63,416 bases of DNA from Desulfobacteraceae bacterium. GTDB taxonomy: Bacteria; Desulfobacterota; DSM-4660; Desulfatiglandales; Desulfatiglandaceae. The DNA is taken from NCBI GenBank assembly GCA_003599015.1, contig QZIK01000133.1:1-63416 (forward strand), in the 5' to 3' direction. Positions within the stretch are counted from its first letter, which is position 1; each line of letters begins with the position of its first letter. Position numbers and translations under genes: made by a program. The notes beneath the pieces were generated by a model that had not been told where the DNA came from, did not search any database, and worked only from the letters and a program-made list of their open reading frames with translations. Of this stretch, positions 3,558 to 41,340 are shown piece by piece.

Positions 3558-3650
3558 TTTGTTCAGCTTGACATCCTGCCCGGGAATTGTCTATCAATTG
3601 GGACCACAAGCAATGCTCAACAGATTTCATATATTATGGAAGGAGAATTT

Positions 3651-5306
3651 ATGGGTTTCCAGTACTCAGTCAGTCCCGATGGTGAGAGTTTCAAGCTCCC
3701 TGACGATAAAGACTACGCCGATGAATATACGAGGATAGAGAGGCTTGTAGCCCTGAAAAAAGAGGAAGGCCTTGAGATTGTTGTTGTCATGGGACTGGGT
3801 TTTGTGGGAGCGGTTATGGCTGCTGTGGTTGCCGACTCCGTTGATAAGAAGACAGGTAAACCCAAAAAATTTGTAATAGGAATGCAGAGGCCCAGTCCAA
3901 GGAGTTTCTGGAAGATTCCGCTTTTTAACAGAGGCATTTCGCCTGTCAAGGCGGAAGACCCTGAGGTGGCGCCGATGATCGCCCGCTGCGTCAATGACAA
4001 GAAGACCCTTATGGCGACATATTCCTACGACGCACTGAGATTTGCGGACGTGCTGGTGGTGGACGTGCAGTGCGACTTTTTAAAGCAGCATCTCGGCAAC
4101 CTCAGAAGCGGCTATGCGGATATCAGCGCACTTGAGGAGAGCTTCAAGATTATAGGAACTAAAATAAGACCTGATTGCCTTGTTCTAATTGAGACAACGG
4201 TTCCACCCGGAACTACCGAATATGTAGCCTATCCAATAATAAAAAAGGCCTTCAAGCTGAGAGGCCTGGACGATGAACCTCTTCTTTCCCACAGCTTTGA
4301 AAGGGTTATGCCCGGCAGAGACTATGTTAGATCAATAAGGGATTTCTGGAGGGTCTGCAGCGGAATAAACCATAAAGCAAGGGAAGAGGTAACAAGATTT
4401 CTCTCTGATGTAATAAACGTGGAACAGTATCCTCTAACGGTACTGGATCGTCCTATTGAGAGTGAGACCTGCAAGATAGTCGAAAACAGCTACAGGGCAA
4501 CGATCCTTGCCTTCATGGATGAATGGAGTATCTTCTCCGAGACAAACGGGGTTGATCTAATAAAGGTCATGAAGGCCATAAAGATGAGGCCTACCCATAA
4601 TAACATGATTTTTCCAGGGCCCGGCATAGGTGGATACTGCCTCCCCAAGGATGGCGGTCTTGGCCTATGGGCCTACAAACATCTTATGGGGTTTGAAAAT
4701 GACATATTTCGAATCACCCCTGAGGCTATCAACATAAACGACACGAGGGCCTTGAGGGCTGCCCAGCTTGTGCGCGACGCCCTAAGGAACATGGGACGGA
4801 TCGTTGCGGCATCCCAGGTTGCAGTGCTCGGTGCCAGCTATAGGGAAGACGTAGGCGACACCCGTTACAGCGGATCAGAGATAATAGTCAGGAAGCTCAC
4901 AGAAATGGGGGCTGAGGTCAAGGCCCACGACCCTTACGTGGATCATTGGTGGGAGCTTGAAAAACAGGACACCTATCCCGCGGTGGGACAAAGCTGGTCC
5001 CGGTTTTTCAGGAACCAGGAGCATCTGGGAGAATTCCGTATGACGAAGGACCTTGGGGACGCCCTTAAGGGATCCGATGCGGTTGTACTCGCTGTCAGGC
5101 ACCGTCCCTACCTCGGGATCTCTCCCGATGAGGTGGTAGATATGGTGGGAGGTCCCCATGCCGTTGTTGATTGCTTCGGTATTCTTGATGACACAAAGAT
5201 TGAGAGATACTTTGAGCTGGGTTGCGAGGTAAAGGGCCTGGGAAGAGGCCACATCAATAGAATAAAAGATAAGGTCCGAAGGAAAAAAATGGGAATGTCC
5301 TCGTGA
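3651..5306 (+). CDS. nucleotide-sugar dehydrogenase family protein (UDP-glucose/GDP-mannose dehydrogenase superfamily), unusually long
   Basis: Rossmann motif VVMGLGFVGAVMA and catalytic-Cys motif GIGGYCLPKD. Start chosen at the ATG at 3651 because GGAAGGAG lies 6 nt upstream; the ORF track starts 15 nt earlier at 3636. Confidence 0.8.
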   Translation: MGFQYSVSPDGESFKLPDDKDYADEYTRIERLVALKKEEGLEIVVVMGLGFVGAVMAAVVADSVDKKTGKPKKFVIGMQRPSPRSFWKIPLFNRGISPVKAEDPEVAPMIARCVNDKKTLMATYSYDALRFADVLVVDVQCDFLKQHLGNLRSGYADISALEESFKIIGTKIRPDCLVLIETTVPPGTTEYVAYPIIKKAFKLRGLDDEPLLSHSFERVMPGRDYVRSIRDFWRVCSGINHKAREEVTRFLSDVINVEQYPLTVLDRPIESETCKIVENSYRATILAFMDEWSIFSETNGVDLIKVMKAIKMRPTHNNMIFPGPGIGGYCLPKDGGLGLWAYKHLMGFENDIFRITPEAININDTRALRAAQLVRDALRNMGRIVAASQVAVLGASYREDVGDTRYSGSEIIVRKLTEMGAEVKAHDPYVDHWWELEKQDTYPAVGQSWSRFFRNQEHLGEFRMTKDLGDALKGSDAVVLAVRHRPYLGISPDEVVDMVGGPHAVVDCFGILDDTKIERYFELGCEVKGLGRGHINRIKDKVRRKKMGMSS

Positions 5307-5323
5307 TAAGCCATGAAAAGGGT

Positions 5324-5479
5324 TTAAGCAACAAAGGCGTTGGGGCCTGCTACTAATCTTATCCCATTATCAAGTGCTATAACATAGAGCTCGTATGGGG
5401 AATCGGTCTTCATCTCTATGATACCGGTTACGCCCCTGTAACCCTTTGTCATCTTAACACGGGTACCCTTGTCCAGCAT
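5324..5479 (-). CDS. small hypothetical protein, 51 aa (below the ORF-track cutoff)
   Basis: Hand translation: MLDKGTRVKMTKGYRGVTGIIEMKTDSPYELYVIALDNGIRLVAGPNAFVA. GGAGGAAGAC RBS immediately upstream of the ATG. Lies 23 nt downstream of the preceding small ORF. Confidence 0.4.
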   Translation of the reverse strand: MLDKGTRVKMTKGYRGVTGIIEMKTDSPYELYVIALDNGIRLVAGPNAFVA

Positions 5480-5502
5480 GGTCTTCCTCCATTTCTGTTG
5501 AA

Positions 5503-5676
5503 TTACGTCTGATAATCCCTGAGCTTCTCAGCCAGGGAATCCGGCCAAAGATCAGAAAAGAGAAATGCCTCCAGTTCTTCTTTGGTTAAGTTTGCGACAA
5601 GGTCCCCGGGAAGGCTTCTAAGTGCCTCCATGCGCTGGGAGTCTGGTTTCCTTTCATCCGATCCGGGATCGGTCAT
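5503..5676 (-). CDS. small hypothetical acidic protein, 57 aa (below the ORF-track cutoff)
   Basis: Hand translation: MTDPGSDERKPDSQRMEALRSLPGDLVANLTKEELEAFLFSDLWPDSLAEKLRDYQT. AAGGAGA RBS 6 nt upstream. Promoter-like element upstream. Confidence 0.4.
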   Translation of the reverse strand: MTDPGSDERKPDSQRMEALRSLPGDLVANLTKEELEAFLFSDLWPDSLAEKLRDYQT

Positions 5677-5756
5677 ACATTATCTCCTTTCCCTTTGACG
5701 GGACGGATTCAGCCAAGTTGAGCCGAGGGCTTAAGGAACTCTTGCGCCTTGTCTCC

Positions 5757-5785
5757 ATACTATGCTAAAGGGAGACTGGTTTCAA
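5757..5785 (-). promoter_or_regulatory. sigma-70-like promoter for the two small ORFs
   Basis: On the minus strand: TTGAAA (5785-5780), a 17-nt spacer, then TAGTAT (5762-5757). It lies about 80 nt upstream of the 5676 start. Confidence 0.4.
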
Positions 5786-5841
5786 GAGGCAATGTTTATT
5801 TCTGTTGAGCGGTAAACAGCTTTTTCCTGGAGATTAACCAA

Positions 5842-6825
5842 TTGAAGGCCAGGTTGCGAATCTGGGCTGGAATTGCTGTTGGGCTTTTATTCATGTATCT
5901 GGCCCTCCGAAAGATCAGCCTGCAAGATCTTCTTGTCGGCTTCGGCAATGCCAGCTACTGGCCTCTTTTTCCATGTGCTGCGCTGGTTCTTTTGGCGCAT
6001 CTGCTGAGGGCATTTCGCTGGCAGGTTATAATGAATGCCTTAAAAATGATAAGACTGGGGGTGCTTTTTTCAGCACTAATGATAGGCTATGTTGTCAATT
6101 CAGTTACGCCTGCCCATCTGGGGGAGCTTGTCAGGGCCTATCTGGTTGGAAAAGAAGAGAGAATTCCGGTCAGTGCGGTGCTGGCAACAGTTGTTATTGA
6201 AAGGATAATAGATATCTTTTCCCTCCTTGTCCTTATGTTCCTTGCCGTCTTTCTTTACCCTTTCCCTGACTGGGTAACGCAAAGCGGATATATGATGTTG
6301 GCCGGAACCCTGGGTCTGATTTTTTTCCTGGCGATAATTCGTTTCCATCCCGTCCCTTCGCTTCGCTATCTGACGTGGGCTTGTAAATTTTTGCCGGGGG
6401 GCTTTGGACAGAAAATAACCGAGGCAGGCGAAAGCTTTATCTCGGGGCTTGTTCCCCTGAGACGATGGTATGATTATGTCACAGTCTCGATTCTTTCAGC
6501 CGCTATATGGTTTTGTTATGGCATGGTCTTCCACCTGTCGCTGTATGCATTCAATTTCACTGAGACCTATGATGCCAACTGGCTTGCCAGTCTCCTTCTT
6601 CTGGTTATAACCACTATTGCGGTTGTTATCCCTTCGTCGCCCGGATACGTCGGAACTTACCATTACCTCTGCCAGCTTACACTGGCCATGTTCATGATAC
6701 CCCCCGGTCAGGCCCTTTCATTTGCGGCAGTCGTCCACCTTGTTAACTTTATTCCTGTAACCGTGGTTGGACTCCTGTGCGCAAAGAGGCAAGGAATGGC
6801 TATAATTGGGGAAAAAAAGCACTGA
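5842..6825 (+). CDS. integral membrane protein, flippase-like / lysylphosphatidylglycerol-synthase TM-region family (UPF0104)
   Basis: 327 aa, about 8 hydrophobic helices, N-terminal pattern typical of UPF0104 proteins. TTG start with a GGAGA RBS. Confidence 0.65.
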   Translation: MKARLRIWAGIAVGLLFMYLALRKISLQDLLVGFGNASYWPLFPCAALVLLAHLLRAFRWQVIMNALKMIRLGVLFSALMIGYVVNSVTPAHLGELVRAYLVGKEERIPVSAVLATVVIERIIDIFSLLVLMFLAVFLYPFPDWVTQSGYMMLAGTLGLIFFLAIIRFHPVPSLRYLTWACKFLPGGFGQKITEAGESFISGLVPLRRWYDYVTVSILSAAIWFCYGMVFHLSLYAFNFTETYDANWLASLLLLVITTIAVVIPSSPGYVGTYHYLCQLTLAMFMIPPGQALSFAAVVHLVNFIPVTVVGLLCAKRQGMAIIGEKKH

Positions 6826-31643: not shown

Positions 31644-33365
31644 ATGAGATATTCGAAGTATTTCATACCTACCCAGAAGGAGGTGCCGTCGGATGCTGAG
31701 GTTGTAAGTCACCAGTTGATGCTCAGGGCCGGTATGATTCGCAAGCTTACATCCGGCATCTATACCTATCTTCCTCTAGGTCTTCGCTCCCTTAAAAAGG
31801 TGGAGCGTATAATAAGAGAGGAAATGGACATGGCAGGGGCCATAGAGCTTGTCATGCCTGCGGTTCAGCCTGCAGAGCTTTGGCAGGAGAGCGGAAGGTG
31901 GGACTACTACGGAAAGGAGCTTTTAAGATTAAAGGACAGACACGGCAGAGACGCCTGCTTTGGGCCCACTCATGAAGAGGTCATAACCGATCTTGTAAGA
32001 AGAGAGGTCAAGTCCTACAAGCAACTGCCCGTCAATTTTTATCAGATCCAGACAAAGTTCAGGGATGAGATAAGACCCCGCTTCGGCCTTATGCGGGGAA
32101 GAGAATTTATAATGAAGGATGCATACAGCTTTGACGCCGGCGAAGAGGGTGTTGCTAGGAGCTACATGAGAATGCATGAGGCCTATTGCCGAATATTTGA
32201 GCGATGCGGCCTTGCTTTTCGTGCTGTGGAGGCTGATACAGGGACAATAGGGGGAAGCTTCTCGCATGAATTTATGGTTCTGGCTGACACTGGTGAAGAC
32301 GAGGTGGTGAGTTGCACCTCATGTGCATACGCAGCCAACCTTGAAAAGGCCGAGGTGAAAGATCAGGTTGCTCCTTCCGGGACCCGGGAGCTTTTGCCTC
32401 TTAAAGAAGTTGCCACTCCAGGCGCAAAAACTGTAGAGGAGGTCACATCCTTTCTTTCTATCGGACCTGAAAAACTGGTCAAGACCATTATTCTGGAGGC
32501 GGATGGAACCCCTGTGGCGGTGCTTGTGCGGGGAGACCACGAGATCAATCTTGCCAAGCTTAAGGTCTTTCTGGGGGCACAGGTGGTTGAGATGGCCTCC
32601 ACAAAGATAATTGAAGATGTGACAGGGGCGCCGACGGGCTTTGCAGGACCGAAAGGAATAAGAGTGAAGGTTGTGGCTGATAACTCCGTACGGAACATGA
32701 GCAATTATGTGACAGGAGGCAATAAAAAAGATCTGCATCTTGCTAACGTAACTCACGGCAGAGATTATGCTATAAGCGCCTTCGGCGATCTGCGGATCAT
32801 AACCTCTCTTGACATGTGCCCCAGATGCGGAGCCTCCATAGAGTTCAGAAGAGGCATTGAGGTCGGTCACATATTCAAGCTGGGCACAAAATACAGCAAG
32901 GCCATGAAGGCCTTTTTTCTGGACGAACGGGGTGAGGAGAGGCCTTTTGTTATGGGGTGCTACGGAATAGGAGTTGGGAGAACCCTTGCTGCTGCAATAG
33001 AACAGAACCATGATGAAAAAGGAATAACTTTTCCTCTGCCGCTTGCCCCGTTTCAGGTTGCGCTTCTGCCTTTGCAGATGCATGAATCCAGGGTTGTCGA
33101 GGCTGCGGAGTATCTTTACAGAGAACTCATTTCCAAAGGAGTAGAGGTTCTTATGGACGACAGGGACGAGAGACCCGGCGTCAAATTTAACGACGCTGAT
33201 TTAATAGGGATACCTCTTCGTGTAACTGTGGGGACAAAAAGCCTTAAGGAAGGAGGCGTGGAGATTAAACTGCGGACTGAGGAAAGAGGATCCATTGCGG
33301 CCCTGCATGAGGCTGCTTCCTGTGTAACGAATAAACTGGCAGCGCTTAATGATTCGCTTAAATGA
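31644..33365 (+). CDS. proS: proline--tRNA ligase (bacterial type with editing insertion)
   Basis: [14 protein letters not shown]-terminus, class II motifs ([25 protein letters not shown]; GCYGIGVGR), and an INS editing domain. Confidence 0.95.
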
Positions 33366-35490
33366 CATCACGGCTCTGGTCCTGAGTTATCATCCCCGGG
33401 CAGATATCCAAATTATTGAGAAGGCTTACGTGTATTCTGCAAAGGTGCATCAAGGGCAGGTTCGCCTCAGCGGCGAACCCTATCTGTCCCATGTTATGGA
33501 AACTGCACATATTCTGGCCCAGATGAAGATGGACGTTGTCTGTATAGCAGCAGGGCTTCTCCATGATACCATTGAAGATACAAATGCCACTCCAGATGAG
33601 ATAGAGAGGCTGTTTGGGGCCGAAGCACTGAGGATTGTTGACGGGGTTACAAAGCTCAGCAAGCTCAAATTCAACAGCGCAAAGGAACGACAGGCTGAAA
33701 ATGTCAGAAAGATGATCCTTGCCATGTCTACAGACATAAGGGTCATTCTGGTAAAGCTGGCTGACAGGCTTCACAACATGAGAACTCTGGGTTTTCAGCC
33801 ACCTGAAAAACAGAGGAGAATCGCGGAGGAAACCCTGGATATCTATGCGCCGATAGCGGGGAGGATGGGTATCCACTGGATCAAGTCAAGTCTGGAAGAC
33901 CTTTGCCTCTACTATCTGGAGCCGGACATCTATGAAAACATACAATCCACAATCGCCCAGAGGAGGGATGAAAGAGACCGATTCATCAGTGATGTCATTG
34001 AGATACTGTCTGCAAAACTTAAGGAACACGACATAAAGCCGATAATTAAGGGAAGGCATAAGCACTTTTACAGCATATTCAGGAAAATGAAAGACCAGAA
34101 CCTTGATGTCAGTCAGGTCTATGACGTCCTGGCCTTCAGGATCATTGTGGATACGGTAAGGGATTGCTATGCGGTCCTCGGGCATGTCCATTCGATGTGG
34201 AAACCGGTTCAGGGTAGAATCAAGGACTATATCTCTGTACCCAAGCAGAATATGTATCAGTCGCTTCACACAACCGTTATCGGCCCCTACGGTCAAAGAA
34301 TGGAACTTCAGATAAGAACCTGGGATATGGACAAGGTTGCTGAAGAGGGTATTGCCGCCCACTGGAGATACAAGGAGGGAGGAGTATCCGGAACTGTTGA
34401 TGAAAAGCAGTTGGGATGGGTCCGGCAGCTCATGGAATGGCAGCAGAACCTCAAAGACCCCGGGCAGTTTCTGGAATCTGTGCGGATGGATCTATTTCCC
34501 AATGATGTCTATGTGTTTACGCCGAAAGGTGAGGTAAAGGAGTTCCCGATGGGCGCCACCCCGGTGGACTTTGCATACAGCATACATTCTGAGGTGGGGG
34601 AAAGATGCTCGGGTGCAAAGGTTAACGGCAGAATGGTTCCTTTGAGATACAAACTTAAAAACGGGGATATAGTTGAGATAATAACCAGCCCCAAGGGACA
34701 TCCAAGCAAGGACTGGCTGGGATTAGTCAAAACCTCAAGGGCCAAAACCAAGATAAGACAATGGGTTCAGAGTCAGGAGAGGGAGGAGAGTATAAGGCTG
34801 GGAAAGGAGATCCTCGAGAAGTATGTGCAGCAGGAACATCTTTCCATCCCAAATATTCTTAAAAGTGATGTTCTGGTTGCAGCGGCAAAGGAGTTGTCTT
34901 TCCGATCCGTCGAGGACCTTCTGGCTCAGATAGGGCTTGGAAGGGCGTCGGCCAGGCAGGTGCTGAGCCGCATCAGGCCAAAGATAGAGACAAAGGAGGA
35001 AAAGGGCTCCGGCTTTGTAAGCAAGGTTGTGGATCTGTGGCGGCGCCGCAGAGACCCTGCCGGTATTGAGGTGACAGGGGTAAGCGATATGCTGGTGCGC
35101 TACGCCCAATGCTGCCACCCTGTTCCCGGCGACCGAGTAGTAGGTTTCATTACCAGGGGCAGGGGCGTATCAGTGCATCGGGAGAACTGCCCGGCGATCA
35201 TAGATTCGGTCCCGGAAAGACTTGTTCCAGTGAACTGGGTTCCTCCCAGAGATGAGGTCTTTCCCGTCATTCTCAGGGTTACAAGCGTTGAAAGGAAGGG
35301 AGTGCTTGCGGATGTAAGCGCAGTGATAACCCAGAAAGATGCCAATATCGCAAGGGCGGAAATCCAGACCACTATGGACAGAAAGGGAATCTCCTTCTTT
35401 ACCATTGAGGTAAAAAACACCACTCAACTCCAGGAGATAACCGCTGCCATTAAGAAGGTGAAGGATGTACTTATAGTTGAAAGACTCTAA
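33349..35490 (+). CDS. relA: bifunctional (p)ppGpp synthetase/hydrolase (RelA/SpoT homolog)
   Basis: HD domain (HDTIEDT), synthetase domain ([14 protein letters not shown]), TGS and ACT C-terminal domains. Overlaps the proS end by 17 nt. Confidence 0.95.
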
Positions 35491-35508
35491 GGCGTTGTAT
35501 TTTTTTGG

Positions 35509-35697
35509 TTAAATCTTGACAATTCTTCCTGATTTTATGCAGTTGGTGCATACTCTCATGGTTTTAGGCTGTCCATCACTAATGCAATGCACTTTTTTGA
35601 GATTTGGAAGCCATCTGGTTCGTGTTTTGTTGTTGGCATGGCTTACCTTATTACCAAGCTGGGGTTTTTTTCCACATATCTCGCAGGCTCTCGCCAT
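35509..35697 (-). CDS. rpmB: 50S ribosomal protein L28
   Basis: 62 aa: [35 protein letters not shown]. The longer ORF-track version adds an unlikely N-terminal extension. Confidence 0.9.
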
Positions 35698-35841
35698 TGG
35701 TTTGTCTCCTTTATATAATGGTATAATGCTAATTGTGAGTTTATCTTCGTGAGAAGATCCCGCACATGAAAATGAAGCATATAAAAAAATATTTATAATT
35801 TTTCTTTTGAATCTTGGCAAGGATTTTTTTTGGAGAATGAT

Positions 35842-37320
35842 ATGACAGCGCCGCGCGAAATATTCACTGGCGAGGAAATCCCTTTACCATCGCCGATTCT
35901 TAACCGCATTCCGGAAAAAATTAATCACATTCATCTCATGGGCATATGCGGTACAGGAATGGCATCGTTGGCCGGAATCCTGCAGAACATTGGTTATCAT
36001 GTAACAGGCTCCGATCAGGATGTTTATCCTCCCATGAGCCATCTTTTGGAATCGCTGAATATAAAGGTCATGAAAGGTTATGGCTCAGACAACCTTAATC
36101 CGTCTCCTGATCTGGTGGTTGTTGGAAATGTGATTACCAGGGCTAATCCAGAAGCCATGGCTATGGTTGCGAAAAACCTGCCCTATGTTTCATTCCCTCA
36201 GGCTATCAGGAACTTCGCACTCAAAGGAAAGAAAAGTGTCGTCATAAGCGGTACACATGGAAAGACCACAACCTCGTCCCTTGCTGCCTGGATGCTGAAT
36301 TGTGCAGGGATGGATCCCGGATTTATGATTGGAGGGATCCCTGCTAACTTTCAGGTCAACTTCAGACTTGGAACAGGGACCTTTTTTGTTATAGAGGGTG
36401 ACGAATATGATACGGCCTTTTTTGACAAGGGGCCAAAGTTCCTTCACTACGATCCGTGGGGATGCATTATTACCAGTATAGAGTATGACCATGCGGATAT
36501 TTACCGCGATATTGATCATGTCTGTGACAGTTTTGCCAAACTGATCTCTTTGATTCCCGGAGACGGTTTTCTCATCGCCAATTTCGATTATGCCAGGCTA
36601 AAAAAAGAGGCAGTGCTCGCCCTATGCCCTGTTCACACCTATGGCTTGAATGGTCATTCTACCTGGGGAGCAGACGGCATAGTAACAGAAAACGGCATCA
36701 CCAGCTTAAGGATATTAAGAAATGGAAGGATTTTTACTGATCTTTCGACGCATATTTACGGACTCCATAATATATCCAATCTCATTTCCGTAGTGGCGTT
36801 AAGTCAATGCCTTGATGTCCCCGTCAGAGCCGTTAAAGAGGCGGCTATGGAATTTAAGGGAGTAAAGAGAAGACAGGAATTAATTGGAGAGGCAAAGGGC
36901 GTTACCGTACTGGATGATTTCGCACATCATCCGACCGCTGTTAAGGAGACGGTTGCCGCGGTAAGGGGACGCTATCCTCTCAGAAGGATTATTGCCGTAT
37001 TTGAGCCGCGCTCCAATTCAAGCAGGAGAAATGTCTTCCAGGAACAATACTCCCGGTCATTCTCAGGTGCGGATCTGGTGATGATACCCAGACCTTCTCT
37101 TTTGGAAAAGATTCCTCCTGCCGACAGGTTTTCATCAGAGAGGCTGGTTGAAGACCTCAGAAAGAAAGGCCTGAGTGCCTATTATTTTGAGAATACAAAC
37201 GGGCTGTTGAAGACCCTTACAGGAGAGGCAAGGAGCGGGGATGTAGTTCTCTTTATGTCCAACGGAGCCTTTGACCATTTACCTAAGAGATTTTTTGAGA
37301 TAATGGCTGTCTCAAATTAG
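35842..37320 (+). CDS. mpl: UDP-N-acetylmuramate:L-alanyl-gamma-D-glutamyl-meso-DAP ligase
   Basis: [18 protein letters not shown]-terminus, Mur ligase P-loop [19 protein letters not shown]. The start could instead be TTG at 35830. Confidence 0.85.
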
Positions 37321-37350
37321 ATGAGAAGGCCTGGTAACGAGGTATTTTAT

Positions 37351-37379
37351 TTGAATTGATTTCCTTATCAAATTAAACT
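37351..37379 (+). promoter_or_regulatory. candidate sigma-70 promoter of the GAF-ANTAR gene
   Basis: TTGAAT (37351-37356), a 17-nt spacer, then TAAACT (37374-37379). Confidence 0.4.
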
Positions 37380-37431
37380 TACATAACACAGGAATTTTCC
37401 ATACCCGGGATAAGGATGATTTGCAGGATCA

Positions 37432-38142
37432 ATGGAGAAGATTAGCCCCGACACCTACGAGAAATATATTAAAGCCCTTATGGATATAAGCGGCGCCATC
37501 ACATCAGAGCGCTATCTTGAAGATATCCTGAAGCTCATTGTTATGGTTACGGCCAAGGTTACAGGTGTTGAGATATGCTCTTTATGGCTGATAGATGAAA
37601 GCGAAGACCCTGTCAGGATAAGGCTTAAGGCAACCCAGGCAATAGATCCGGAATATGTAAAGGATAGGTCTTTGACCCTCAAGGAAGGCGTGGTGGGATA
37701 CGTCGCAACCCACAATGAACCCCTTATGATTGAAGATGTACTTCAGGAGCCTCGCTTTAAAGAAAAAGAGATGGCTAGAAAGCTGGGGCTGGTTTCAATG
37801 CTGGGGGTTCCGCTTCAGGTAAGAGAGCAGAAGGTCATAGGTGTATTAAACTGCTTTACTTCTGAAAAATACATCTTCTCTGAAACTGAAATCAATCTGA
37901 TAAAGGCCGTGGCAAACCAGGCGGCAGTGGCCATCCTGAATACGGAACTCATGGTCAAGACAAGGGTTATTCAGGAGGAGCTTGAAACCAGAAAACTTGT
38001 GGAGCGGGCCAAGGAGATATTAATGAGAAGGCGCAACATGGACGGCGCCGCGGCCCACAGATGGATTCAGAAAAGGAGTATGGATTCAAGGAAATCAATA
38101 AGGCAGGTGGCTGAAGCGGTAATCCTGTCGGACGAGCTCTAA
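37432..38142 (+). CDS. GAF-domain / ANTAR-domain RNA-binding antiterminator
   Basis: GAF region (ICSLWLIDE...VGYVATHNEPLMIEDV...MLGVPL). C-terminal ANTAR pattern LVERAKEILMRRRNMDGAAAHRWIQKRSMDSRKSIRQVAEAVI. Confidence 0.85.
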   Translation: MEKISPDTYEKYIKALMDISGAITSERYLEDILKLIVMVTAKVTGVEICSLWLIDESEDPVRIRLKATQAIDPEYVKDRSLTLKEGVVGYVATHNEPLMIEDVLQEPRFKEKEMARKLGLVSMLGVPLQVREQKVIGVLNCFTSEKYIFSETEINLIKAVANQAAVAILNTELMVKTRVIQEELETRKLVERAKEILMRRRNMDGAAAHRWIQKRSMDSRKSIRQVAEAVILSDEL

Positions 38143-38172
38143 TCATCTCTGAAAATTTTCAAAAGAAACCAC

Positions 38173-38202
38173 TTGACAAACCCCTTAAGTTAAGCTTAAA
38201 AA
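38173..38202 (+). promoter_or_regulatory. candidate sigma-70 promoter of the ANTAR-controlled leader
   Basis: TTGACA (38173-38178), an 18-nt spacer, then TAAAAA (38197-38202). Confidence 0.35.
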
Positions 38203-38230
38203 TATCAAAAATATGAAGCAGCAATAATAT

Positions 38231-38276
38231 CCGCACAAAGGCGTGCGGCCGATATGGTGAGAGGGACAAAGGCGTC
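38231..38276 (+). promoter_or_regulatory. ANTAR-type dual hexaloop RNA element
   Basis: P1: CCGCAC-AAAGGC-GTGCGG (38231-38248). P2: GAC-AAAGGC-GTC (38265-38276, extendable by G-U pairs). Both loops are 6 nt with A at position 1 and G at position 4. The 3' half of P2 is the 5' arm of the terminator. Confidence 0.6.
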
Positions 38277-38312
38277 TTGCTCCGTGAAGGAGAAGACGCC
38301 TTTTTTATTTTT
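38271..38312 (+). terminator. intrinsic terminator in the leader of the glutamate-synthase-like gene
   Basis: GGCGTCTTgCTCC (38271-38283) pairs with GGAGAAGACGCC (38289-38300): 12 bp with one bulge. It is followed by TTTTTTATTTTT. Confidence 0.75.
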
Positions 38313-38356
38313 GTTAACTATTTATGCGGATACACAAAACAAGGAGGAAACGAGTT

Positions 38357-39940
38357 ATGAACCTGCATCGCCCCAATTCCAATGAGGCACTTCAAACCAA
38401 GAACCGGTCACGTGACGTGGCTCCTCAGTCAGGCATCTGCAGCCGGTGCGTAGATGGATGTAAAGGCAACTGCGACCTTTTCAACGCCACCTTCCGTGGC
38501 AGGGAACTTCTTTATCCTCAACCCTTCGGTGAGATTACTGCTGGGGCGGATAAGGACTATCCAGTCGACTATTCCCACCTGAATATTATGGGCTATGCCA
38601 TGGGCGCTGAGGGATCCATGGCCGATCCGGATCACGCCACCTTTCCGGCGGTCTCCACAGAAACATCATATGGAGCATCCCAAAAGGTCAAGATGAAGGT
38701 TCCAATGTTCACAGGGGCGCTCGGGAGCACAGAGATAGCCAGGAAGAACTGGGAACATTTTGCCGTGGGTGCTGCCATATCAGGGATAACCCTTGTATGC
38801 GGCGAGAATGTCTGTGGCATAGATCCAAGGCTTGAGCTTAACAAGAATGGAAAGATCGTGGAAGCCCCGGACATGAGAAGGAGGGTGGATGAATACCGCA
38901 GGTATCACGGTGGATATGGTGATATAATAGTTCAGATGAATGTTGAAGACACAAGGCTCGGAGTCGCAGAATATGTCGTCGAGAAACTTGGTGTTGAGAC
39001 AATCGAGCTAAAATGGGGACAGGGAGCAAAGTGTATTGGCGGTGAGATAAAGGTTAGTTCCCTTGATAGGGCCCTCGAACTTAAGCGCCGGGGATATATA
39101 GTTACGCCTGATCCGGAGATTAAATCTAATCAGGATGCATTCAAACACGGAGCAATAAAGGAGTTTGAGAGACATTCAAGGCTTGGGTTCATAGACCAGG
39201 AAGGGTTTATGAAGGAGGTGGAAAGGATAAGAAAAATGGGCGCAAAGAGGGTTACCCTCAAAACAGGCGCCTATCCAATGAGGGAACTTGCCATGGCCAT
39301 CAGGTGGTCGTCGGATGCAGGTTTAGACCTCCTCACCATTGATGGTGCTCCTGGTGGGACAGGCATGAGTCCGTGGCGGATGATGTCCGAGTGGGGTATC
39401 CCGTCAATTTATCTGCACTCCATGGCATACGGGCTCTGTGACAGATTGGCGAAGAAGGGCGCCCGAGTGCCTGACATTGCATTTGCCGGCGGCTTTTCCT
39501 CTGAAGATCATATTTTTAAGGCGCTGGCACTCGGTGCTCCTTATTGCAAGGCAGTATGCATGGGAAGAGCTTTGATGATCCCCGGCATGGTAGGGAAGAA
39601 CATCGGCAGGTGGCTGAAGGGTGAAGACGGTGGATTGCCTTCAACCGTCAAGCAGTATGGTTCAACCAAGGAAGAGATATTTGTTTGCTATGAAGAGCTG
39701 CGCTCAAAATATGGAGAAGAGGTTGATAAGTTCCCTCTTGGAGCTGTAGGTATTTACAGCGCATCACAAAAGCTCCAGGTGGGGTTGCAGCAACTTATGG
39801 CCGGGGCCAGGAAATGGCGTGTTGATCTTATATCCAGGAAGGATCTGGCATCTCTTACTGAAGAGGCTTCCAAGGTAACGGGCATTCCATATATCATGGA
39901 TGCTTACAGGGACGAGGCCCTTGCTGTCATAGACGCATGA
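38357..39940 (+). CDS. FMN-binding glutamate synthase family protein (GltB domain-2-like) with an N-terminal Cys cluster
   Basis: CSRCVDGCKGNC Cys motif. TIM-barrel FMN region with IDGAPGGTGMSPW and AFAGGF. ATG at 38357 preceded by AAGGAGGA; the ORF track starts at 38324. Confidence 0.8.
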   Translation: MNLHRPNSNEALQTKNRSRDVAPQSGICSRCVDGCKGNCDLFNATFRGRELLYPQPFGEITAGADKDYPVDYSHLNIMGYAMGAEGSMADPDHATFPAVSTETSYGASQKVKMKVPMFTGALGSTEIARKNWEHFAVGAAISGITLVCGENVCGIDPRLELNKNGKIVEAPDMRRRVDEYRRYHGGYGDIIVQMNVEDTRLGVAEYVVEKLGVETIELKWGQGAKCIGGEIKVSSLDRALELKRRGYIVTPDPEIKSNQDAFKHGAIKEFERHSRLGFIDQEGFMKEVERIRKMGAKRVTLKTGAYPMRELAMAIRWSSDAGLDLLTIDGAPGGTGMSPWRMMSEWGIPSIYLHSMAYGLCDRLAKKGARVPDIAFAGGFSSEDHIFKALALGAPYCKAVCMGRALMIPGMVGKNIGRWLKGEDGGLPSTVKQYGSTKEEIFVCYEELRSKYGEEVDKFPLGAVGIYSASQKLQVGLQQLMAGARKWRVDLISRKDLASLTEEASKVTGIPYIMDAYRDEALAVIDA

Positions 39941-40041: not shown

Positions 40042-41340
40042 TTATTTCAATTTGATCCAAATCAACCTTGCCGTAGCGCTGCCTTCATTAATCCATTCGG
40101 ACGGTATCTCTGCAGAAAGATAAATAAGATCTCCCTGCTTAAGACGATGGGAAGCCTTTCCAAGTGTTACGCTCAGTGTTCCAGAAAGCATATAACCCAA
40201 CTCTTCTCCCTTGTGTATGAAAAAATGGGAAGGAAGGTTTTTGTTTGGAGGGATCTCAATTAAATATGGCTCTGCTCTGGTTTCAAGGTCAACCGGTATC
40301 AGCAGCTTTCCGATTATTGAGTCTTCGTGCATATGCTGAAACTTTATCTCCGTTGCCTCCTTTGCCGGGAAGATGAATCGGCTTCTGGTTCCACCTTTTT
40401 CCTGAAAAAATGCGTTTACCTCCACCGACAATATCTCTGCCATTTTTAGAAGGGCCGGGAGGGAAGGGTATATGAGATTGCCCTCCACCTGTGAGATGGT
40501 ACTGGGGGTGACTCCCACCAGTCTGGCAAGCTCTGTCTGAGAAATCCCTCTTTTGGTTCTGAGCTCCTTTAGCCTTGCTCCCAGATCTCCTCTCGCAGTT
40601 CCCCGCCCTTCATCCTCGAAAGCTATTGAAAGGCCCTTGGCCCAATAACTAAAAGCTCTGTTAAACGTGTCGAGGTCTCTTTTTTCTGCCTTAACGAGGG
40701 TAAGGGCTGTACTTCCTCTCTTTACAGAAAGATCAATTACAACCTGGGCTATCTGGTTTATCTGTGCCTTGAGTCTGGGGCTGTGAGCCCCTTTTTCCAG
40801 TATCCAGTAGGCTATTGTATTGAGTTCATATAAGCGGGGGCAAGAATGGGCATAAAAGCTTGCCATTTTTTCTTCGCCGCCCCAGAGTTCCTGCATCCCC
40901 GTTATACTTTCAAAGACAAAACGCACGTCCCCTTTCATAGTGGCGTGGAGTTCATAGAAGGCCTTGGTGAAGCTGTAGACGTCCCTTGGGTCCTCCATGC
41001 GGATGATGCGGCAGGCCGAAGCTGACTGGTCTTCATCATAAAACTTAAGGAATATATCTGAGCCTTCTCCTTTTCCGAATGTGAAGCAGTCTAGGATTGT
41101 AAGCAGGTTATTGTCGGCAAGATCGCCGAGCTTATCAATAAGGTTGCGGGGAGAACGATCAAAACTAACATAGATAATAGGTCGCCCTTGTTCCTGGGAT
41201 GCCTTTATAAAATTAAGGCAGAAGACTGATGCAAGGCTCCCTGCATCGTCGTGCCATACTACGTTATCTCCTATAAAAAGACCTCCCAGAATCTTATCAA
41301 GATATCTAACGCCTGTTGCTATTTTTACTTTTGTTCCCAT
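40042..41340 (-). CDS. three-domain regulator: KaiC/RecA-like domain without a Walker A motif, XRE-type HTH, and a cupin domain
   Basis: N-terminal TGVRYLDKILGGLFIGDNVVWHDDAGS resembles KaiC TG.PGLD..LGGG but lacks GxxGxGKT/S. HTH: LKELRTKRGISQTELARLVGVTPSTISQVE. C-terminal cupin: HKGEELGYMLSGTLSVTL...GDLIYL. Confidence 0.75.
   Translation of the reverse strand: MGTKVKIATGVRYLDKILGGLFIGDNVVWHDDAGSLASVFCLNFIKASQEQGRPIIYVSFDRSPRNLIDKLGDLADNNLLTILDCFTFGKGEGSDIFLKFYDEDQSASACRIIRMEDPRDVYSFTKAFYELHATMKGDVRFVFESITGMQELWGGEEKMASFYAHSCPRLYELNTIAYWILEKGAHSPRLKAQINQIAQVVIDLSVKRGSTALTLVKAEKRDLDTFNRAFSYWAKGLSIAFEDEGRGTARGDLGARLKELRTKRGISQTELARLVGVTPSTISQVEGNLIYPSLPALLKMAEILSVEVNAFFQEKGGTRSRFIFPAKEATEIKFQHMHEDSIIGKLLIPVDLETRAEPYLIEIPPNKNLPSHFFIHKGEELGYMLSGTLSVTLGKASHRLKQGDLIYLSAEIPSEWINEGSATARLIWIKLK

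Follow-up and report, generated by a model that had tools for sequence, protein, structure and literature searches.

The window, the whole 63,416-nt stretch of Desulfobacteraceae DNA that was analysed, carries on its forward strand a gene for a GAF-ANTAR protein, followed by a leader with its own promoter, two hexaloop hairpins (P1 and P2) and an intrinsic terminator, and then by an FMN glutamate-synthase-family gene. The features are as follows.

37432..38142, forward strand: GAF-ANTAR regulator gene, 236 aa, with Pfam GAF and ANTAR matches
Within the 236-aa regulator (AF2 model): GAF at about residues 26-170, linker helix 151-201, ANTAR helices 205-218 and 223-235
38173..38201, forward strand: sigma-70-type promoter of the leader, read in the sequence and kept in homologous leaders
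38231..38248, forward strand: P1 hairpin, CCGCAC[AAAGGC]GTGCGG, read in the sequence and found again by script and by folding
38265..38276 (core; 38263..38278 with extension), forward strand: P2 hairpin, GAC[AAAGGC]GTC, candidate antiterminator, read in the sequence and found by script
38268..38312, forward strand: intrinsic terminator, from the MFE fold, −23.7 kcal/mol
38343..39940, forward strand: FMN glutamate-synthase-family gene, 527 aa, including the RBS AGGAGG at 38343-38348 and the start codon ATG at 38357

The original prediction had placed a TTGACA-type promoter 3′ of the GAF-ANTAR gene, and one is present there, its −35 box (TTGACA) at 38173-38178 separated by a 17-nt spacer from a weak −10 box (TTAAAA) at 38196-38201, so placed that transcription of the leader would start at about 38208-38210. 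A consensus promoter and terminator scan of the window missed this promoter, because its −10 box is weak, and missed the bulged terminator as well. Both hairpins stand in the sequence just as they had been given, at 38231-38248 and 38265-38276, each with A at position 1 (A1) and G at position 4 (G4) of the hexaloop AAAGGC. P1 is a 6-bp stem of −10.0 kcal/mol. P2 taken alone is weak (−1.7 to −3.3 kcal/mol), with a 3-bp core that grows to 5 bp when two G·U pairs are included (38263-38278) and, in an extended form with one A/G mismatch (38259-38282), to 8 bp and −7.6 kcal/mol. The MFE fold of 38200-38320 consists of P1 and the terminator, with a z-score of −3.9, and none of 200 shuffles folds as well. 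The terminator itself lies where it had been predicted, with a core of GGCGTCTT(G)CTCC / GGAGAAGACGCC at 38271-38300 followed by T6AT5 at 38301-38312, but its stem is not the plain 12-bp helix then described: it contains one bulged G (G38279), closes on a GUGAA loop and reaches 15 bp (38268-38303) when the A-U pairs extending into the U-tract are counted. The overlap of hairpin 2 with the terminator's 5′ arm was borne out by folding. This arm is made up of the P2 loop and the P2 3′ arm, positions 38268-38278 belong to both structures, and the two are mutually exclusive (−3.3 vs −23.7 kcal/mol), an arrangement that is kept in all 38 of the homologous leaders considered below.

The controlled gene begins at ATG 38357 and not at the in-frame ATG 38324; homologues begin MNLHRPN. 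Since the next gene is convergent, the controlled unit is monocistronic. The product had been described as a stand-alone FMN glutamate-synthase domain with an N-terminal Cys cluster, and this is what the searches recover: the 527-aa protein matches Pfam Glu_synthase (PF01645) at 58.3 bits against a cut-off of 20.4, over profile positions 186-309 of 369 only, and has a CxxCxxxCxxxC at residues 28-39. The GltS FMN-domain motifs QGAK..GG, DG..GGTG.SP and GG align with those of a canonical FMN-domain protein at 24% identity, and the protein is named “FMN-binding glutamate synthase family protein” in its sources. An NCBIfam search with this protein gave no match, and a PDB sequence search returned no GltS, only de novo TIM barrels. 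Its AF2 model was set aside as evidence (pLDDT 55; Foldseek finds FMN TIM barrels of a generic kind and places GltS 31st and 38th). A complete GOGAT would comprise amidotransferase, central and GXGXG domains plus an electron-donor subunit, with glutamate synthase activity; of these parts, only the FMN-type barrel is found here, together with the N-terminal Cys cluster, and we file the protein as a glutamate-synthase-family FMN protein of putative activity.

The regulator matches Pfam GAF at 1e-21 (78 bits) and Pfam ANTAR (PF03861) at 5e-19 (68.3 bits against a cut-off of 27.3), and it is very strongly conserved, with 73-89% identity to its counterparts in 80 species-level genomes. In the AF2 model (pLDDT 82), the GAF domain leads into a long, unbroken helix (151-201) and from there into a three-helix ANTAR domain, and the PDB matches of the ANTAR part are Rv1626, EutV, NasR and AmiR. 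An exhaustive search of representatives with the regulator was dominated by multi-GAF giant proteins and is uninformative about family size. GAF-ANTAR proteins had been called little studied, in agreement with the literature searched, where no characterised one was found (PMC3369931, PMC7496416).

ANTAR antitermination is a published mechanism, and the eutP leader of Enterococcus faecalis, the target of EutV, likewise has two hairpins with A1/G4 hexaloops and a P2 shared with the 5′ arm of a terminator (PMC3369931, PMC8934654). EutV binds the loops as a dimeric ANTAR protein with a coiled-coil, and most of its RNA-contact residues (R142, K143, K149, Y164, M172 and R175) are conserved here: at the corresponding positions R187, K188, K194, M217 and R220 are invariant in the regulator family, and an aromatic residue occupies position 209 (Y, H or F in the family, H in the window). 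Other contact residues are swapped (R168 to Q213, N173 to D218, R177 to S222), and Rv1626 also has Q and D where the regulator has Q213 and D218. Some features speak against a switch of this kind at our locus. In EutV, Glu160 contacts G4 and its mutation brings a 60-fold loss of binding (PMC3369931, PMC8934654), whereas the equivalent residue of the regulator, G205, is Gly across the family. The linker between P1 and P2 is 14-16 nt in the window leader (family median 16) versus 5-12 nt in the eut leaders, and in eut a linker of 14 nt impaired EutV control. Finally, a few leaders have G at position 1 of a loop. The two systems also differ in input and output, EutV being a REC-ANTAR protein with a phosphorylated receiver (EutW/EutV) and ethanolamine utilisation as its target, while the sensor here is a GAF domain.

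Among the nitrogen-related systems, NasR of Klebsiella oxytoca, which acts on the nasF leader, resembles the switch proposed here in being a one-component, ligand-sensing ANTAR protein with nitrogen assimilation targets. The P2 of the NasR/nasF and the Pseudomonas NasT/NalA leaders, GACAAAGGCGU, is essentially identical to P2 of the window, and as a search pattern it retrieved leaders before nitrate ABC-transporter genes that adjoin NIT-ANTAR or REC-ANTAR genes. These systems differ from ours in their sensor, a NIT domain responding to nitrate or nitrite or else a NasS-NasT complex, and in their control of nitrate reduction or import genes, not of glutamate formation. A further case comes from Geobacter, a deltaproteobacterium. 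GnfK/GnfR of Geobacter sulfurreducens also controls nitrogen-metabolism genes by ANTAR antitermination, but as a two-component REC-ANTAR system with nif, glnK and amtB as its targets, and under the RpoN-dependent GnfL/GnfM (PMC2995071). For the target class found here, Ramesh et al. 2012 (Fig. 9 and supplementary table) had predicted ANTAR regulons that precede glutamate synthase genes in Desulfotomaculum reducens and Carboxydothermus hydrogenoformans. These share with our locus both the RNA motif and the target class (glutamate synthase or glutamate-synthase-like), but they are from Firmicutes, and the neighbouring regulator listed is an ANTAR response regulator; the pairing with a GAF-ANTAR protein in Desulfobacterota is not described in the text or the supplements of that paper examined here.

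Evidence on the RNA side comes from 38 homologous leaders, the window leader among them, taken from species-level genomes of related Desulfobacterota. Conservation of the two hexaloops in orthologous leaders had been set as a check by the original prediction, and it came out in favour of the ANTAR reading: G4 is present in both loops of all 38, and A1 in 37 of the 38 for P1 and in 34 for P2, the exceptions being G. Conservation is far higher in the loops than in the stems, whose lengths vary across the family from 3 to 13 bp (P1) and from 2 to 8 bp (P2), and the loop-to-loop spacing is 25-40 nt in 37/38. P1 shows compensatory changes at 4 of its 6 pairs, with 93% of cells paired; the outer 11 pairs of the terminator are 95.5% paired, with compensatory changes at 5. 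The GAC of the P2 5′ arm lies outside the terminator, yet it is invariant or nearly so. A TTGAC[A/T] stands at a fixed distance in all 38, with a −10 consensus of cTAAAA. These comparisons support the view that the leader has the sequence-testable features of a published ANTAR target.

The pairing of this leader with the GAF-ANTAR gene, which the original prediction had offered as a cis/trans pair, is supported by synteny read in both directions. Starting from the protein, a leader occurs within 4 kb downstream in 37 of the 73 testable GAF-ANTAR loci, and within 600 nt in 31. At about half of the orthologous GAF-ANTAR genes (34-36/73) there is no leader within 4 kb, and adjacency is therefore frequent, not obligatory. 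Starting from the RNA, a metagenome scan finds the GAF-ANTAR gene directly upstream and on the same strand in 49 of the 73 testable glt-like leaders, at a short distance (median 142 nt). The targets of the same leader in metagenomes are mostly glutamate-forming, namely the glt-like FMN proteins, GDH and an mvhD-metVF-GltS operon. A second GAF-ANTAR clade (43% identity) divergently adjoins the GDH leaders in 4/4 cases. The class of sensor also tracks the class of target: before nitrate-transporter genes it is a NIT-ANTAR or REC-ANTAR gene, not a GAF-ANTAR gene, that adjoins the leader in 8/10. A sigma-54 reading of the “TTGACTTGACTGG...” promoters in the mvhD-class leaders was considered and rejected, the GG-GC spacing being unfit.

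The alternative that survives these data best is that the leader is a genuine ANTAR target controlled in trans by an ANTAR protein encoded elsewhere, for example a GnfR-like REC-ANTAR, the adjacent GAF-ANTAR gene being simply a neighbour that acts elsewhere. The hexaloops recognised by different ANTAR domains are very much alike, and the sharing of one P2 sequence with leaders that adjoin NIT-ANTAR and REC-ANTAR genes points the same way, as do the 24 glt-like leaders that lack an upstream GAF-ANTAR gene and the GAF-ANTAR genes, about half, that lack an adjacent leader; the window, moreover, offers a view of only 63 kb of the genome. We nevertheless regard control from elsewhere as unlikely in the face of the close same-strand adjacency at two-thirds of the RNA-anchored loci and of the second clade beside the GDH leaders, and the regulator is the sole ANTAR ORF in the window.

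A quite different concern is whether the hexaloops mean anything at all. The published signature in its loose form (two hairpins with ANNGNN loops and stems of 3 bp or more, no more than 30 nt apart) occurs 56 times in the window versus 44 ± 8 in shuffles, which is not significant alone, and when a following T5 run is added it occurs 11 times versus 4.6 ± 2.1. This generic dual-hexaloop scan, no better than chance, was dropped as evidence. More specific patterns are significant. The 10-mer ACAAAGGCGT occurs three times in the window against 0.04 expected (for the third hexaloop, at 5329, a look-up of orthologues gave only contigs of the same organism), and the family pattern occurs once, as against none in 100 shuffles. 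A covariance model built from the orthologous leaders scores the window leader at 68.7 bits (E 9e-15); the next-best sense-strand match in the window has an E value of 0.9, so that there is one site only. A search with this model of the window and 80 loci under default filters, and of the window with filters off, found nothing beyond the training set. The ANTAR reading stands on a conserved, covarying leader, even though the loose signature is common by chance. That chance frequency speaks for a second alternative, in which hairpins and terminator would simply close the GAF-ANTAR unit at its 3′ end or form a constitutive attenuator, the hexaloops being like ANTAR sites by coincidence; after the stop codon of the GAF-ANTAR gene the consensus scan found no further terminator ahead of the leader, as such a reading would have it. 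We think this very improbable, given that a promoter kept in 38/38 leaders lies between that stop codon and P1, that the leader also precedes glt-like, GDH and mvhD genes with no GAF-ANTAR gene upstream, that it is the loops more than the stems that are held constant, and that the invariant GAC arm would be superfluous for a plain terminator. A search for RNA-seq runs that contain the window found none, and a single metatranscriptome contig spans an orthologous locus (L008) but offers flat mean depth only, which does not resolve termination.

Least probable of all is a metabolite-binding riboswitch, or a target of some other kind of RNA-binding protein: nitrogen-related riboswitches exist and no Rfam family is found in the window at gathering thresholds, but so small and simple a structure has no room for a ligand pocket and agrees with the ANTAR motif point by point, an ANTAR-domain protein is encoded on 74 of the 120 metagenome stretches that bear the motif, and the sub-threshold Rfam matches of the leader are P11 (the Pseudomonas P11 sRNA; 24.5 vs 70 bits) and narK (12.6 vs 43.2 bits), families that presumably both lie in nitrate-assimilation leaders.

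The reading that we prefer, and hold to be quite likely, is a one-component ANTAR antitermination switch, with the GAF-ANTAR protein acting on the adjacent leader. Transcription would start at about 38209 from the TTGACA promoter, and by default the leader would fold into P1 and the terminator, so that RNA polymerase would halt in the U-tract (38301-38312) and release an RNA of about 100 nt. In the activating ligand state of the GAF domain the regulator, presumably dimerised through the long helix 151-201, would bind both AAAGGC hexaloops and keep the weak P2 closed. Since the terminator's 5′ arm begins with 11 nt that lie within P2, the terminator would be blocked whenever P2 is closed, and transcription would read through into the FMN glutamate-synthase-family gene. 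The signal would most likely be a metabolite reporting nitrogen or carbon status, glutamine and/or 2-oxoglutarate; the genes predicted to be under this protein family are for enzymes that form glutamate.

That suggestion comes from the kinship of the sensor. The closest relatives of the regulator's GAF domain, and its best matches in both sequence and fold, are the GAF domains of PtsP (EI-Ntr), whose structures 3ci6 and 3trc head the stand-alone GAF matches in the PDB, and of NifA; the NCBIfam matches to both are partial (PtsP 8e-17, NifA 9e-16) and far below the full-length cut-offs. In output the three part ways, PtsP being a phosphotransferase and NifA a sigma-54 activator, while the regulator ends in an ANTAR domain of RNA-binding type. 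The NifA GAF domain binds 2-oxoglutarate. [quoted passage not shown] The identity between the regulator and PtsP GAF domains is only 24-27%, and for that reason the ligand is not transferable with confidence. GDH and GltS-type enzymes are classically used at opposite ammonium levels and both are among the targets, so that the direction of the response is not derivable from them.

The mechanism is not new: ANTAR antitermination, its link to nitrogen and a predicted control of glutamate synthase are already established. What the locus adds is a clean cis/trans pair for the GAF-ANTAR architecture, validated by sequence comparison, and with a protein of 236 aa and a short RNA the question of the ligand becomes directly testable. 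More tentatively, and with the odds in our view against it, the regulator could sense glutamine and/or 2-oxoglutarate directly, as a one-component system, and act after initiation as the master regulator of a lineage-specific regulon of “glutamate-forming” enzymes in Desulfobacterota. Such a regulon would take in at least three paralogue groups of stand-alone, GltS-like FMN enzymes that carry an N-terminal Fe-S cluster, together with GDH and an mvhD-metV-metF-like operon that has two GltS FMN-domain genes and is possibly a ferredoxin-linked or electron-bifurcating glutamate synthase. If this were true, the GAF-ANTAR class would gain its first ligand and regulon, and there would be a hint of an undescribed type of GOGAT. 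In any case, the locus flags the FMN glutamate-synthase-family enzymes of sulfate reducers, a poorly understood group, as putatively nitrogen-regulated.

The original prediction had placed a complete ANTAR antitermination unit at 37432-38356, and every feature it listed was found again in the sequence of window region 37200-38700. The following were read from the sequence, except where Pfam or an open reading frame (ORF) is named.

Features of the GAF-ANTAR locus
37432-38142, + strand: GAF-ANTAR ORF, 236 aa (Pfam GAF at residues 29-168, E 1e-21; ANTAR at 180-231, E 5e-19)
38173-38178, + strand: -35 box of the leader promoter, TTGACA
38196-38201, + strand: -10 box of the leader promoter, TTAAAA, weak, with a 17-nt spacer
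38231-38248, + strand: P1 hairpin, CCGCAC[AAAGGC]GTGCGG
38265-38276, + strand: P2 hairpin, GAC[AAAGGC]GTC
38271-38300, + strand: terminator, G+C core GGCGTCTT(G)CTCC/GGAGAAGACGCC
38301-38312, + strand: T6AT5 tract after the terminator stem
38357 (ATG), + strand: target gene, 527 aa, with RBS AGGAGG (sequence and Pfam)
40042-41340, - strand: convergent gene 3′ of the target (ORF)

Since the gene after the target is convergent, the controlled unit is monocistronic. That convergent gene encodes 432 aa with a KaiC-like ATPase N-terminal region, a Cro/C1-type HTH and a C-terminal cupin (PuuR-like), a fusion that is unusual for a transcription regulator. The genes 5′ of the regulator (33349-37320) appear to be housekeeping: from their translations, 33349-35490 was taken as a RelA/SpoT-family (p)ppGpp enzyme and 35509-35752 (-) as ribosomal protein L28, and 35830-37320 encodes a Mur-ligase family protein, Mpl-like, with Pfam support. 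No leader-like element precedes the GAF-ANTAR gene in the window, and thus there is no sign that it is autoregulated.

The unit is best explained as a one-component ANTAR antiterminator. When 38200-38320 is folded, the minimum-free-energy structure consists of P1 and the terminator (z-score -3.9; 0/200 shuffles equal it). P1 by itself contributes -10.0 kcal/mol, and P2 contributes -1.7 kcal/mol as 3 bp, -3.3 as 5 bp (38263-38278, with two added G.U pairs) and -7.6 in its extended form (38259-38282, with one mismatch). Nucleotides 38268-38278 are common to P2 and the terminator 5′ arm, so the predicted competition between these mutually exclusive structures is borne out, and since the terminator, at -23.7 kcal/mol, far outweighs P2, unassisted leader RNA terminates. 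Read-through therefore needs something that keeps P2 closed, which is exactly the ANTAR logic. By default, transcription would terminate at 38301-38312; we infer that the GAF-ANTAR protein, activated by a ligand (presumably glutamine and/or 2-oxoglutarate), would bind both hexaloops as a dimer and lock P2 closed, and that the terminator would then be blocked and read-through into the target gene would follow. This mechanism is the same as that of EutV, NasR, AmiR and NasT (PMC3369931, PMC8934654, PMC10783516).

The A1/G4 hexaloop signature of the original prediction is present, but in its loose published form (a pair of ANNGNN-loop hairpins, each with 3 bp or more, at most 30 nt apart) it is by itself no better than chance, with 56 occurrences in the window versus 44 ± 8 in dinucleotide shuffles, and 11 versus 4.6 ± 2.1 with a nearby T5 run; it is the specific element that is significant. 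The 10-mer ACAAAGGCGT (loop plus closing pairs) occurs 3 times versus 0.04 expected, and the family pattern CACAANGGCGTG-N8-38-GACAAAGGCGT once versus 0 across 100 shuffles. A covariance model was trained on orthologous leaders and run on the window, also with filters off; it scored the leader at 68.7 bits (E 9e-15) and gave no second one in the window, where its other sense-strand matches all have E >= 0.9 (filters off). The third ACAAAGGCGT copy, at 5329-5342 (+), folds into one hexaloop hairpin, CAAC[AAAGGC]GTTG, 23 nt past the stop of a UDP-glucose/GDP-mannose dehydrogenase-family gene (3636-5306); at this site there is no second hairpin, terminator or covariance-model match. The minimal ANTAR-binding unit is one hexaloop (PMC8934654), and this hairpin may be either an isolated binding site or a product of chance.

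Homologues of the regulator number in the thousands; the best 120 of them are 79-100% identical, and the taxon-named sources among these are Desulfobacteraceae, Deltaproteobacteria, Thermodesulfobacteriota or Pseudomonadota MAGs. When each species was represented by one genome, a scan gave 80 regulator loci at about 73-88% identity, with labels such as Desulfobacteraceae, Desulfobacterales, Desulfatiglandales and Thermodesulfobacteriota. Among the 73 with enough 3′ sequence, a homologous leader lies within 4 kb downstream in 37 and within 600 nt of the stop in 31, counts of non-independent events, drawn as they are from MAGs and related lineages. Both hexaloops were expected to be conserved in orthologous leaders, and they are: across 38 homologous leaders, loop position 4 is G in 38/38 for both P1 and P2, position 1 is A in 37/38 (P1) and 34/38 (P2), with G in the exceptions, and position 2 is A in 37/38 (P1) and 38/38 (P2), while P1 position 3 is free to vary. 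Because a few canonical leaders carry G at position 1, A1 is less strict than G4 across the window-leader family. These otherwise canonical leaders (locus and local position) have the G in P2 of L001 5111, L020 4910, L035 7608 and L036 1583 and in P1 of L047 4832, in loops such as GAAGGC, GATGGC and GACGAC.

Pairing is conserved as well. In P1, 93% of cells are paired and 4 of the 6 pairs have compensatory changes; for the outer 11 pairs of the terminator the paired share is 95.5%, and 5 of them have compensatory changes. Both structures beat all 500 column shuffles and every slid control; the P2 core GAC/GTC cannot covary because it is never or almost never variable. The loops lie 25-40 nt apart in 37/38 leaders. 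A plain terminator does not account for the GAC arm of P2, which is outside the terminator yet conserved. A promoter of its own in 38/38 leaders (cTTGAC[A/T] 89-128 nt 5′ of P2, with a cTAAAA -10 box 17 nt further on) makes the element a 5′ leader and not the mere 3′ end of the regulator gene. An inverted repeat, TTAG-N5-CTAA, overlaps the leader -10 box (window 38185-38199 (+), TTAAG ttaag CTTAA) and recurs in 21/38 homologous promoters, with an A-rich tract 5′ of the -35 (L009, L010, L031, L036, L044, L070, L077 and others); a DNA-binding regulator may use it as an operator, and initiation control would then come on top of antitermination. A search of RNA runs gave none that covers the window; one metatranscriptome contig spans regulator, leader and target of the L008 orthologue and carries flat mean depth only.

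For the regulator, AlphaFold2 (pLDDT 82) gives a GAF fold, a continuous helix at 151-201 and two more helices, so that the model reproduces the ANTAR layout of a coiled coil and three helices. When the RNA contacts of Enterococcus faecalis EutV (PMC8934654) were transferred via PDB alignment onto 22 family members, R142, K143, K149, M172 and R175 corresponded to invariant R187, K188, K194, M217 and R220. Tyr164, which stacks on G4, aligns with position 209, where family members have Y, H or F and the window protein, like AmiR, has His; Glu160, another G4 contact, is Gly205 throughout the GAF-ANTAR family, a real deviation from EutV. The GAF domain best matches that of PtsP/EI-Ntr (NCBIfam 8e-17; PDB 3ci6, 3trc; Foldseek TM about 0.8 on target) and that of NifA (NCBIfam 9e-16). 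The NifA GAF domain binds 2-oxoglutarate. Glutamine is bound by the EI-Ntr GAF domain (PMC4848567). At 24-27% sequence identity, the PtsP/NifA likeness is a lead to the ligand, not a test.

The description of the target as a stand-alone FMN glutamate-synthase domain with an N-terminal Cys cluster stands: its Pfam Glu_synthase match is partial but significant (58 bits), its N-terminus reads CxxCxxxCxxxC, and the amidotransferase, central and GXGXG domains are absent. Its name in the sources is 'FMN-binding glutamate synthase family protein', and it aligns with a canonical GltS FMN-domain protein at 24% identity through the QGAK..GG, DG..GGTG.SP and GG motifs. NCBIfam gave no match to the target, a PDB sequence search with it did not match GltS, and its structure model is poor (pLDDT 55). 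What can be claimed for the protein goes as far as 'glutamate-synthase-like'.

A metagenome scan by motif pattern alone, with the pattern taken from the window-leader family, returned at least 120 stretches. Downstream lies a glt-like FMN protein in at least 79 (38-94% identical, in three or more paralogue groups), an MvhD/FlpD protein opening an operon in at least 15, a nitrate ABC-transporter binding protein (NMT1_2) in at least 10, glutamate dehydrogenase (GDH) in at least 4, a GATase+GXGXG protein and an AspRS-GatC fusion in at least 1 each, another or unclassified ORF in at least 7 and no ORF in at least 3. Among the matches listed, a GAF-ANTAR gene lies directly upstream on the same strand in 49 of the 73 glt-like leaders with enough 5′ sequence (median 142 nt from regulator stop codon to P1 in glt-like leaders); a second GAF-ANTAR clade (about 43% identity to the window protein, both Pfam domains confirmed) divergently adjoins the leader in 4/4 GDH cases (L084, L112, L123, L144); NIT-ANTAR (NasR-like) or REC-ANTAR (NasT-like) genes adjoin 8 of the 10 nitrate-transporter leaders (L092, L109, L113, L117, L120, L128, L151, L159, L182, L192); and 74/120 stretches encode an ANTAR-domain ORF. 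The last two observations act as an internal positive control for the motif as an ANTAR target, and the strongest available argument for the adjacent GAF-ANTAR protein as cognate regulator is that sensor class follows target class. No Rfam family captures the window leader; its weak P11 and narK matches arise because its P2 sequence, GACAAAGGCGU, also occurs in nitrate-transporter leaders, and from these comparisons that sequence is common to distant ANTAR systems.

Within the genome set, locus L019 has the order orthologous regulator, leader, gdhA (leader/gdhA region 4387-5907). Because targets of the GAF-ANTAR family include both GDH and GltS-type enzymes, the response to the ligand could have either sign; what these enzymes have in common is that they form glutamate from 2-oxoglutarate. 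Leaders of MvhD(FlpD) clusters were seen at L035 7559-8708, L045 4768-5388, L059 5617-8708, L079 1841-4987 and L176 2401-7545 (-). The order is complete in L176 alone (mvhD, metV-like (DUF5981), metF (MTHFR), a ferredoxin/GltS-FMN gene and a canonical GltS FMN-domain gene, this last with a PF01645 match of 7e-92); the reading of L059 reached a truncated 4Fe-4S ferredoxin-domain ORF, and that of L035, L045 and L079 covered the MvhD gene alone, plus the metV start in L035. The operon joins an MvhD/MetVF-type electron module to glutamate-synthase domains, and could encode an undescribed ferredoxin-linked or bifurcating GOGAT.

Ramesh et al. 2012 had predicted that ANTAR substrates precede glutamate synthase genes of Desulfotomaculum and Carboxydothermus, pointed out the general link between ANTAR proteins and nitrogen metabolism, and noted that none of the PAS-ANTAR and GAF-ANTAR proteins had then been characterised (PMC3369931); in a 2020 paper the characterised one-component ANTARs were only PAL and NasR (PMC7496416). 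A full-text literature search on GAF-ANTAR, or on ANTAR with sulfate reducers, found nothing relevant, and with these two papers it agrees with the earlier remark that GAF-ANTAR proteins are little studied. The mechanism itself is known; the interest lies in an uncharacterised sensor class with a well-defined regulon.
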